Shown here: positions 1,165 through 1,263 of the stretch, in pieces
Numbering within the stretch: position 1 is the first letter of the stretch
How the letters are laid out: each line of letters begins with the position of its first letter
Origin: Escherichia coli
GTDB taxonomy: Bacteria > Pseudomonadota > Gammaproteobacteria > Enterobacterales > Enterobacteriaceae
DNA length: 1,486 nt
Assembly: GCF_003334255.1 (NCBI RefSeq)
Contig: NZ_QOWU01000156.1
Direction: 5' to 3' (one strand)
Translations under genes and position numbers: made by a program
The notes under the pieces: generated by a model
Seen by the model: the letters and a program-made list of their open reading frames with translations, nothing else
Database searches by the model: none
Told to the model about the DNA's origin: nothing

Positions 1165-1204
1165 TTGATTTTTCCCGAATCTGTGGTAAATTTGCCCTAA
1201 CGAT
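1165..1204 (+). promoter_or_regulatory. Late promoter pR'-like: -35 TTGATT (1165-1170), 16-bp spacer, extended -10 TGgTAAATT (1184-1192), inferred start near 1199, and promoter-proximal sigma70-dependent pause element AACGAT (1199-1204)
   Basis: The segment TAAATTTGCCCTAACGATGGG (1187-1207) matches the lambda pR' -10 and initial transcribed region as I recall it (TAAATTTGACTCAACGATGGG) with identical spacing. It sits 6 nt after the Q stop codon, the canonical place for the Q-dependent late promoter. The Q-binding element would lie between the -35 and -10 (about 1171-1186). Confidence 0.7.
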
Positions 1205-1241
1205 GGGCGTTTTATGCCTGACGTTAGAAGAATTTTTACAC

Positions 1242-1263
1242 CCCGCCGCCTGGCGGGTTTTTT
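1242..1263 (+). terminator. Rho-independent terminator, candidate tR' (the terminator that Q-modified RNA polymerase reads through)
   Basis: A perfect 6-bp GC-rich stem, CCCGCC (1242-1247) pairing with GGCGGG (1252-1257), around a 4-nt loop GCCT, followed immediately by TTTTTT (1258-1263). It lies about 45-65 nt downstream of the inferred pR' start. Confidence 0.7.

Follow-up and report, generated by a model that had tools for sequence, protein, structure and literature searches.

In this work, the segment 1165-1265 of a 1,486-nt stretch of Escherichia coli DNA (the window) was analyzed, and it very probably represents the switch that controls the late genes of a lambdoid prophage with a Q protein of the lambda-Q family. 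The sequence elements of the switch, the homology of its Q protein, and the conserved position of its terminator were observed directly. The cassette has the standard promoter-pause-terminator arrangement behind a lambda-type Q gene, a kind that is already known (Table 1). The 1486 bases of the window are lambdoid prophage sequence and occur identically in several complete E. coli genomes, for example at 449728-451213 of NZ_CP116067. The gene order in that genome is rusA, the 273-aa "antitermination protein", a 65-aa hypothetical protein, a DNA methyltransferase, and tRNA-Ile with tRNA-Arg, followed by a TolA-like gene, an SASA/nanS-p esterase, DUF1378 and DUF826 genes, and a holin. The region is a Stx-phage-like late region without stx, and its late genes, including the holin, are located 3' of the terminator. 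The 65-aa protein WP_000917743.1 matches PHROG 331, the category of which is unknown function. The promoter-leader segment is present in 1,696 of the 5,426 complete E. coli genomes (~31%). Strains G1/2 and DETEC-S792 match at 100%, and matches of 97.8-98.6% occur among O25b:H4 and O157:H7 strains.

Table 1. Features of the late-gene switch and of the neighboring genes, in window coordinates.
Feature	Position	Strand	Basis or remark
rusA	3-341		ORF listing of the window
273-aa Q antiterminator gene, lambda-Q family, long form	338..1159	+	ORF listing
Predicted -35 hexamer TTGATT of a pR'-like late promoter	1165..1170	+	predicted by alignment with the lambda TTGACT position
Candidate Q-binding element TTTTCCCGAATCTGTG, between -35 and -10	1170..1185	+	conserved block; inferred
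Extended -10: TG 1184-1185, one base, TAAATT 1187-1192	1184..1192	+	-10 hexamer same in lambda and P22 pR'
Predicted start +1 = A1199 and sigma-70-dependent pause element AACGAT (+1 to +6)	1199..1204	+	identical to lambda and P22
Predicted terminated late leader RNA, ~65 nt, analogue of lambda 6S RNA	1199..1263	+	from promoter and terminator parts
5'-terminal leader hairpin: AACG/CGUU outer stem, GGGCGU/AUGCCU inner stem	1199..1225	+	minimum-energy fold
Single-stranded linker AGAAGAAUUUUUACAC, A-R-N repeats and U-rich run	1226..1241	+	unpaired in minimum-energy and centroid folds
Intrinsic terminator tR': stem 1242-1247/1252-1257, loop GCCT, U tract 1258-1263, then AU	1242..1265	+	scan and fold
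First gene past the terminator, 65-aa protein, leaves the window	1386..1486	+	annotated WP_000917743.1 in an identical genome

The Pfam search of the 273-aa Q protein gave the Antiterm domain PF03589 twice (E 1e-26 and 6e-22) together with a DnaJ CXXCXGXG domain. PF03589 and PF06323 were reported as the Q-lambda and Q82 families, respectively (Yin et al., 2022, PMC9388147). A phage-82-type Q, which was first suspected from the linkage of rusA and Q, was ruled out on the basis of this difference in family. The best solved relative of the protein is lambda Q (PDB 7UBM_Q, E 2.9e-39), whose residues 1-113 align with residues 1-113 of the window Q and residues 117-207 with residues 183-273. Residues 114-182 of the window Q form a 69-aa Cys-rich insertion with four CXXCXGXG motifs. 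Over its full length, the window Q is 30.7% identical to both lambda and P22 Q (tblastn E 2e-29 to 5e-30). In an alignment of ten members of the family, lambda Q alone is without any insertion, and the Q protein of phage mEp021 has only a short version of it. Because the window Q is a member of PF03589 and thus of the lambda-Q family, the cassette is expected to work in a lambda-like way.

The predicted promoter (-35 TTGATT and TG-n-TAAATT) aligns with pR' of lambda and P22, and promoter activity is documented for its K-12 homologue. The spacer between the -35 and -10 hexamers is 16 bp long, and 6 bp lie between TAAATT and AACGATGGG, which begins at 1199. The GGTAAATTTG-NNNN-AACGATGG arrangement of the window matches pR' of lambda and P22 at every base. 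Furthermore, the RefSeq record of P22 marks the first A of AACGAT as the 5' nucleotide of the late RNA, and the -10 region is annotated there as P late. Since the pR' core equals that of lambda and P22 and the P22 record puts the 5' nucleotide at this place, the start was assigned to A1199. The A2 and T6 residues of AACGAT are invariant among 23 window-type variants, and pausing would be expected near +16 to +18 (1214-1216). The block TTTTCCCGAATCTGTG occupies the place of the lambda Q-binding element (QBE) with a different sequence, which makes it a candidate Q-binding element. It is nearly unchanged in cassettes whose Q proteins are only 55-63% identical to the window Q. A consensus promoter scan of the window returned no promoter. 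The scan misses the late promoter because its hexamers match the consensus at 8 of 12 positions, under the threshold of 9, and the TG of the extended -10 is not counted. The late promoter is probably constitutive.

The terminator hairpin at 1242-1257 consists of CCCGCC and GGCGGG arms that form six pairs, all G-C, around a 4-nt loop, and it is followed by TTTTTTAT at 1258-1265. The canonical features of an intrinsic terminator, i.e., six G-C pairs, a loop of 4 nt, and six U residues adjoining the stem, were thus found at 1242-1263. The terminator scan of the window detected four terminator-like sites (1.8 ± 1.4 in shuffled sequences), of which this hairpin is the strongest. The first-pass annotation had placed a strong intrinsic terminator with its end at about 1263 and had proposed the folding energy of 1235-1265 as a check. 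The terminator was confirmed by its stem and six T residues, and the fold of 1235-1265 has an energy of -12.6 kcal/mol (z = -2.73), which was equalled by 3 of 200 shuffles. With A1199 as its first base and the final T of the run, at 1263, as its last, the leader has 65 nt, with a margin of ±2 nt for the real 3' end, so the earlier estimate of a 60-65-nt leader and its coordinates were right. Counted from the start, the terminator hairpin spans +44 to +59 and the U tract +60 to +65. For the RNA 1199-1265 as a whole, the predicted fold comprises one hairpin at 1199-1225 and another at 1242-1257, with -21.9 kcal/mol (z = -2.44). One further terminator-like match at 1193-1209 spans the start site, and because of this position the 5' arm of its hairpin lies outside the pR' transcript. 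In the region 1264-1345, no structured or terminator-like element was found, and its fold is no better than that of shuffles (z = +0.27).

The ORF listing also contains a reading frame within this region (ATG 1203 to 1271), and it could be supposed that the leader encodes a 22-aa peptide and acts as a translation-coupled attenuator. A weak likeness to Trp_leader in Rfam points in the same direction, although its 15.6 bits are below the gathering score of 41. However, ATG 1203 is only 4 nt from the 5' end, has no ribosome-binding site, and is situated inside the constrained AACGATGGG motif. Moreover, the frame stops after two codons in the HK225 type (ATGGGTTAA) or is wholly different in relatives, and an alternative antiterminator pairing is not evident in the folds. 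The leader peptide was rejected for the lack of a ribosome-binding site and of a conserved frame, and we regard the attenuator as extremely improbable.

The late leader of this lineage can be followed in vivo in the Qin prophage of E. coli K-12. The Qin leader AACGATGGGCTTTGTATACCCGACGTTAAGAAAAAGTAGAAAACCCGCTGATGAGCGGGTTTTGTGC lies directly past quuQ/ydfT, whose Q product is 40% identical to the window Q. Of the 70 columns in its alignment with the window leader, 50 are identical, and both RNAs fold into the same two hairpins. The +1 predicted for the Qin leader is 1,642,422(-) in NC_000913.3, which corresponds to 1,640,446 in the older coordinates (offset 1,976). A class I TSS cluster obtained by dRNA-seq is listed at 1640444-1640447 in the older coordinates in Table S2 of Romero et al. 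(2014, PMC4681348), and this cluster covers -1 to +3 of the homologous AACGAT. The supplement of the same work contains the sRNA ECS025 between cspF and ydfT on the reverse strand (1640375-1640447, 72 nt). In Supplementary file 1 of Adams et al. (2021, PMC7815308), an "orphan" Term-seq 3' end is given at 1,642,356(-) in three growth conditions, with mean reads of 103,591 and 55,368 in two of the three. This 3' end is +67 of the Qin leader. Furthermore, ECS025 is described on Northern blots at the expected size, with a 2-3-fold increase on cold shock, by Shinhara et al. (2011, PMC3175480). As the 5' end, the 3' end, and the Northern band of the Qin RNA have been mapped, the short late leader of this lineage is made and terminated in vivo. 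The mapped 3' end at the U tract is that of the homologous Qin terminator. ECS025 is not called a late leader in the accessible parts of these three sources (PMC7815308, PMC4681348, PMC3175480). Both ECS025 and the orphan 3' end 1,642,356 can now be interpreted as the late leader that Qin produces. In the Cappable-seq supplements nothing was found for the Qin leader, and ydfT, quuQ, and cspF are all absent from the EPEC RIL-seq tables.

The first-pass annotation had set the window leader against the 194-nt leader of lambda, a figure that was reproduced here from lambda DNA, and had regarded the terminator as unusually close to the site of Q engagement. We compared it with a sample of the lambda-Q family that was collected by an exact-pattern scan of IMG/VR for the pR' core and by a Q-homology scan, and which comprises 185 loci with 142 distinct leaders and is not unbiased. 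In 148 of the 185 loci (110 distinct leaders), the stem of the first terminator has its end at +46 to +67; in 33 loci, all of the lambda type, this end is at about +189, and in four the terminator is absent or mutated. A few relatives have weakened terminators (L082, L158, L162). The annotated phage records are in line with short leaders. The P22 record contains P late, qut, +1 at 37887, and t late at 37917-37945 (31-59 nt past the late start), which gives a leader of about 60 nt, and the phi80 record has the pR' -10 at 42012-42017 and a terminator at 42070-42098, i.e., a leader of about 75 nt. In the HK225 and SfV records, terminators are located 88-140 nt past the Q stop codon. According to our own reading of ten relatives, the leader has about 55 nt in HK225 and YeP3, about 60 nt in P22, 65 nt in the window and SfV, about 70 nt in phiEt88, about 72 nt in SEN22 and GZ7, about 75 nt in phi80, and 194 nt in lambda. 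Both sampling routes agree that 55-75 nt is the usual leader length in the lambda-Q family, so the terminator of the window is not unusually close, and the 194-nt 6S RNA of lambda has to be seen as an outlier in its own Q family. There is also no mechanistic problem with a close terminator, because the nozzle (torus) of Q-lambda holds only 11-13 nt of RNA before threading (PMC9388147). The hairpin at +44 to +59 would therefore be synthesized long after a Q protein has been loaded at a pause near +16/+17.

A second terminator-like site, GCCTTCAGTCCTGAAGGC followed by TTTTTTATTT (L001 7570-7587), lies just past the 65-aa ORF, 84 nt beyond the end of the window. It corresponds to about +372 to +389, with a T run to about +395. 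If this distal site gated the late genes and the hairpin at 1242-1263 terminated only partly or incidentally, the regulated leader would be nearly 400 nt long. The site stands directly behind the small ORF and recurs at +370 to +391 in many window-type loci, and several terminators are known within lambdoid late operons (PMC8022706). On the other hand, the proximal hairpin is the stronger one (six G-C pairs versus four), and it is in place in three loci (L020, L034, and L066) which have neither the ORF nor the distal site. The proximal hairpin is also annotated as a terminator in P22, phi80, HK225, and SfV, and the homologous K-12 terminator has the abundant 3' end at +67 in the supplementary Term-seq data. 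We therefore consider a distal gate improbable, and the distal site may be a back-up that adds to termination. The earlier suggestion that the true tR' might be found further downstream is not supported, given that the hairpin position is kept in all window-type relatives and that the 3' end of the Qin homologue was mapped in vivo. What remains of the first-pass reading is the first terminator past a Q-type late promoter and a leader of ~65 nt, without the unusual shortness and without a displaced tR'.

The position of the proximal terminator is well conserved. A hairpin at +42/44 to +59/61 occurs in all 41 window-type leaders from IMG/VR, whatever module comes next. Right past +65, only 45-53% identity to the window is left in L020, L034, and L066, which keep the leader with its terminator. 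In the phage collection, the homology of the Q module ends at 1263-1265 in phages Evi and mEp460, and the homology of the late module begins at 1242-1243 in phages that carry a different, 126-aa Q. From these break points (1242/1243 and 1263/1265) it follows that the 22-bp terminator is the shared junction of mosaic Q and late modules. For annotation, the terminator can be used as the exact exchange junction between Q modules and late/moron modules. In 23 variants of the terminator stem, the position is kept and the changes are wobble changes and a compensatory change at one pair. The hairpin cells are 92.5% paired in these variants versus 33-41% when the partners are slid, and the helix cells of the 5' hairpin are 96.5% paired. 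Covariation is thin in this close family, in which a single pair changes on both sides and the score was matched by 19 of 500 shuffles; real covariation support for the hairpins was not obtained with 23 close variants, which are too little diverged. For this reason, the support for the hairpins comes mainly from conservation and from distant relatives, where unrelated GC-rich hairpins with T runs are found at the same place. On the sequences compared, such unrelated hairpins at one place are a stronger argument for a terminator function than the variation within the close family.

The 5' end of the leader shows a pairing of its own. Most members of the lambda-Q family can form a short helix between this end and a stretch 20-27 nt further downstream. 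The helix is AACG(A)/(U)CGUU in lambda, P22, HK225, the window, SfV, and GZ7, AACA/UGUU in SEN22 and phiEt88 (by eye), and AAGGA/UUCUU in YeP3. When +1 to +30 was folded, none of the first 4 nt was left unpaired at minimum energy in 28 of 41 distinct leaders, versus 5.9% of shuffles that keep AACGAT. The family-wide 5' hairpin is a lead and not a result, as the sequences are related and the shuffle control ignores phylogeny.

The coincidence of the terminator with the recombination junctions of the modules raises another reading, according to which it is mainly an insulator or module boundary that ends early-right read-through from rusA and Q, with a promoter that is silent here and no short leader. 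The coincidence is exact, transcripts from upstream would stop here too, and the hexamers of the promoter with their 8/12 matches are missed by the scan. However, the promoter, pause element, and terminator occur as one set and persist alongside Q proteins of as little as 55% identity, and the -10 and initial transcribed region equal those of the active pR' of lambda. Moreover, the weaker-looking Qin promoter is active in K-12, judging by the TSS cluster and the Northern band in the published sets cited above. A silent promoter with a purely insulating terminator is thus very improbable, and we retain the late-gene switch as the preferred reading.

The mechanism of lambda Q has been described as binding between -35 and -10, engagement with the paused complex, and formation of an exit-channel nozzle, aided by NusA, which blocks terminator hairpins (PMC9388147). 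For the window copy, promoter activity, the pause site, Q binding at 1170-1185, and Q-dependent read-through are predicted from its sequence and from these homologues. We hypothesize that the host sigma-70 RNA polymerase starts at A1199 from the probably constitutive promoter. Sigma region 2 would then re-bind the -10-like AACGAT (+1 to +6), and the polymerase would pause near +16 to +18. Without Q, the polymerase would go on and stop at the hairpin at +44 to +59 and the U tract at +60 to +65, and the two-hairpin RNA of ~65 nt would be freed. With Q, the protein would bind between -35 and -10 and load on the paused complex with NusA, forming a nozzle on the RNA-exit channel. The nozzle would block the terminator hairpin and allow read-through into the small ORF, the methyltransferase, the tRNAs, the esterase, and the lysis genes.

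The ~65-nt RNA could have its own function besides the switch, either as a trans-acting regulator like StxS or through a 5' hairpin that stabilizes or tunes the late mRNA, and this independent function adds to the switch explanation and does not compete with it. The late leader of Stx phage is processed to the Hfq-binding sRNA StxS, antiterminated promoters were proposed as a source of sRNAs (Sy et al., PMC7547250), and short late RNAs were noted for phages 21, phi80, 82, and P22 (PMC7547250). Besides the StxS precedent, the two hairpins, the A-R-N/U-rich linker, and the 3' U tract make a plausible sRNA shape. The transcribed pause element supplies one arm of the 5' hairpin, which is seen again in other members of the lambda-Q family. 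It would be speculation to regard the linker 1226-1241 as an Hfq-type module. The promoter-leader unit is common (1,696 of 5,426 complete E. coli genomes), and in K-12 its homologue is an abundant RNA whose level goes up 2-3-fold on cold shock. Against a function of its own, Rfam gave nothing near threshold, and the leader is none of the Pas, AsxR/AgvB, or StxS RNAs. In addition, ECS025 is absent from the prophage sRNAs that are reported as reduced in the hfq knockout (PMC3175480), conservation among the window, SfV, and K-12 is lowest in the linker, the would-be seed, and the conservation of the 5' end is partly explained by a DNA-level constraint on the pause element. A permissive Rfam scan of the window yielded suhB/mmgR, Trp_leader, and RF_site2 only, at chance level and far under the gathering scores, and a full-text literature search with the leader sequence gave no match. 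Among the candidate identities, StxS was rejected because its primary transcript has 258 nt and is found behind a 144-aa Q clade, and the Pas sRNAs because PasA and PasD have other sequences and PasB is situated in the tail-gene region. AsxR/STnc100 was likewise rejected, as both, although carried by this prophage, map 2.6 kb further downstream than the window. A function of the leader RNA beyond the switch is improbable. The same low expectation applies to the particular roles of the 5' hairpin and the A-R-N/U-rich linker, whether as a trans regulator in lysogens or as a cap-like structure for late-mRNA stability, pause escape, or Q loading. If the RNA has any function, it would be a widespread one, as about a third of complete E. 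coli genomes carry the unit.

As a discovery, the cassette has little weight, being a textbook Q antitermination cassette with a typical short leader, and what interest is left attaches to the conserved 5'-terminal hairpin and to a possible role for this common, probably constitutive RNA. It shares with the pR'-qut-6S RNA-tR' system of lambda a homologous Q protein (PF03589), the identical -10 TAAATT, the spacing to +1, AACGAT followed by GGG, an intrinsic terminator next, and late genes downstream. It differs from lambda in the length of the leader (~65 nt versus 194 nt, with the tR' stem of lambda ending at about +189) and in the 69-aa Cys-rich insertion, which lambda Q does not have. The sequence of the -35/-10 interval (QBE) differs as well, and the DNA specificity is therefore probably different from that of lambda. 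The P-late/t-late system of P22 (gene 23) has the same type of promoter and pause element, and its terminator is located 31-59 nt past the late start. Because the P22 leader has about 60 nt and its Q protein is nearly that of lambda with the same qut, it is evident that a lambda-type Q works with a very close terminator. In contrast to the window, P22 has an unrelated terminator hairpin sequence (AAAGCCCTGAG...CTCGGGGCTTT), a short-form gp23 that is almost identical to lambda Q, and a holin gene soon after, with no moron region.

ECS025 of Qin has a homologous leader with the same two hairpins, the same CCCGC...GCGGG terminator core, and a long-form Q (QuuQ) directly upstream. Its -35/-10 region and linker differ from those of the window, its U tract is shorter and interrupted, and Qin is a cryptic prophage. 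StxS resembles the window RNA as a probably constitutive terminated late leader of a lambdoid prophage that is made in lysogeny. The Q protein associated with it belongs to the 144-aa clade of Stx phages, whereas the window Q belongs to PF03589. RNase E shortens the 258-nt primary transcript of StxS to 74 nt, and StxS binds Hfq and acts on proven targets. No StxS likeness surfaced in the searches made with the window sequence. Finally, phi80, HK225, and SfV have long-form Q proteins (40-60% identical), annotated terminators, and leaders of about 55-75 nt. The terminator hairpins of HK225 and phi80 are not homologous to that of the window, and phi80 has AACGCT where the window has AACGAT. In SfV, both the leader and the downstream module are homologous to those of the window.

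The late transcript begins with 4-5 nt of transcribed pause element, AACGA, whose complement lies about 20-27 nt further downstream. In most late leaders of the lambda-Q family, the pairing of the two gives a hairpin at the extreme 5' end of the RNA. The arms of this hairpin also occur as the variant pairs AACA/UGUU and AAGGA/UUCUU. In the minimum-energy fold, all four 5' nucleotides were paired in 28 of the 41 distinct leaders, compared with 5.9% of shuffled sequences. No description of a 5'-terminal hairpin in lambda-Q-family late leaders was found. The positions of this hairpin and of the other features are listed in the table.

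Natural variants of the pause element, AATGAT, AACAAT and AAAGAT, were observed at leader positions +3/+4 in mEp460 (L002) and in the survey cassettes L148 and L163-L166. These substitutions sometimes break the outer stem of the 5'-terminal hairpin, and A2 and T6 are retained in every one of them. These two positions are the most important ones in the -10 element for recognition by sigma region 2. A further polymorphism is found at window 1232 (+34), within the unpaired linker of the leader, where the window has A and most window-type leaders have T (AGAAGAATTTTT vs AGAAGATTTTTT). The exact promoter-leader sequence of the window was present in only 2 of the 41 loci in the viral-contig sample.

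In E. coli K-12, the pR'-tR' leader predicted for Qin, a cryptic prophage, coincides exactly with ECS025, a small RNA validated by Northern blot, and with a Term-seq 3' end classed as orphan. ECS025 looks like the Qin counterpart of lambda 6S RNA, and this late-leader reading was not found in the papers examined.

The terminator of the window (1242-1265) is an exact mosaic junction. Homology of the Q module with other phages stops at window 1263-1265, and homology of the late/moron module, which is shared with phages carrying a different, 126-aa Q, starts at window 1242-1243. A second terminator-like hairpin lies directly 3' of a 65-aa ORF starting at window 1386 and might serve as a back-up for late termination. 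Upstream, the stop codon of rusA overlaps the start codon of Q as ATGA (window 338-341), and such tight coupling is typical of lambdoid nin regions (PMC8022706). The same prophage carries an STnc100 and AsxR-like pair in its moron region, ahead of the nanS-p esterase, as well as a sok/hokD module.

Features of the late-gene cassette and its surroundings (L001, prophage locus containing the window and its flanks; L003, P22; L004, lambda; L217, K-12 Qin)
Feature	Position	Strand	Remark
5'-terminal leader hairpin, window	1199-1225		
5'-terminal leader hairpin, lambda	L004 2202-2224		
5'-terminal leader hairpin, P22	L003 2202-2224		
5'-terminal leader hairpin, other			also in HK225, SfV, GZ7, YeP3 and K-12 Qin
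Predicted Qin pR'-tR' leader	NC_000913.3 (K-12 MG1655) complement(1,642,356..1,642,422); L217 about 4357-4423	minus	directly 3' of quuQ
Second terminator-like hairpin with T run	L001 7570-7596		about 84-110 nt past the window end
STnc100 and convergent AsxR-like anti-sRNA	L001 9808-10074	+ (STnc100), - (AsxR-like)	outside the window; gathering-level Rfam matches
sok/hokD module	L001 2012-2187		outside the window, upstream of the nin region
69-aa insertion in window Q relative to lambda Q	window 677-883 (residues 114-182)		
CXXCXGXG motifs of window Q	residues 117-124, 171-178, 184-191, 210-217		

The block TTTTCCCGAATCTGTG between the -35 and -10 elements (window 1170-1185) is near-invariant across cassettes whose Q proteins are merely 55-63% identical. 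It is a candidate Q-binding element (QBE) that would define a specificity group, and it differs from both the lambda QBE and the SfV/Qin type. Among ten aligned proteins of the family, the insertion in the window Q was wholly absent only from lambda Q, and a short version was present in mEp021 Q. With the insertion included, the window Q has four CXXCXGXG motifs, the pattern of the two-zinc cysteine-rich domain of DnaJ, as against two in lambda Q.
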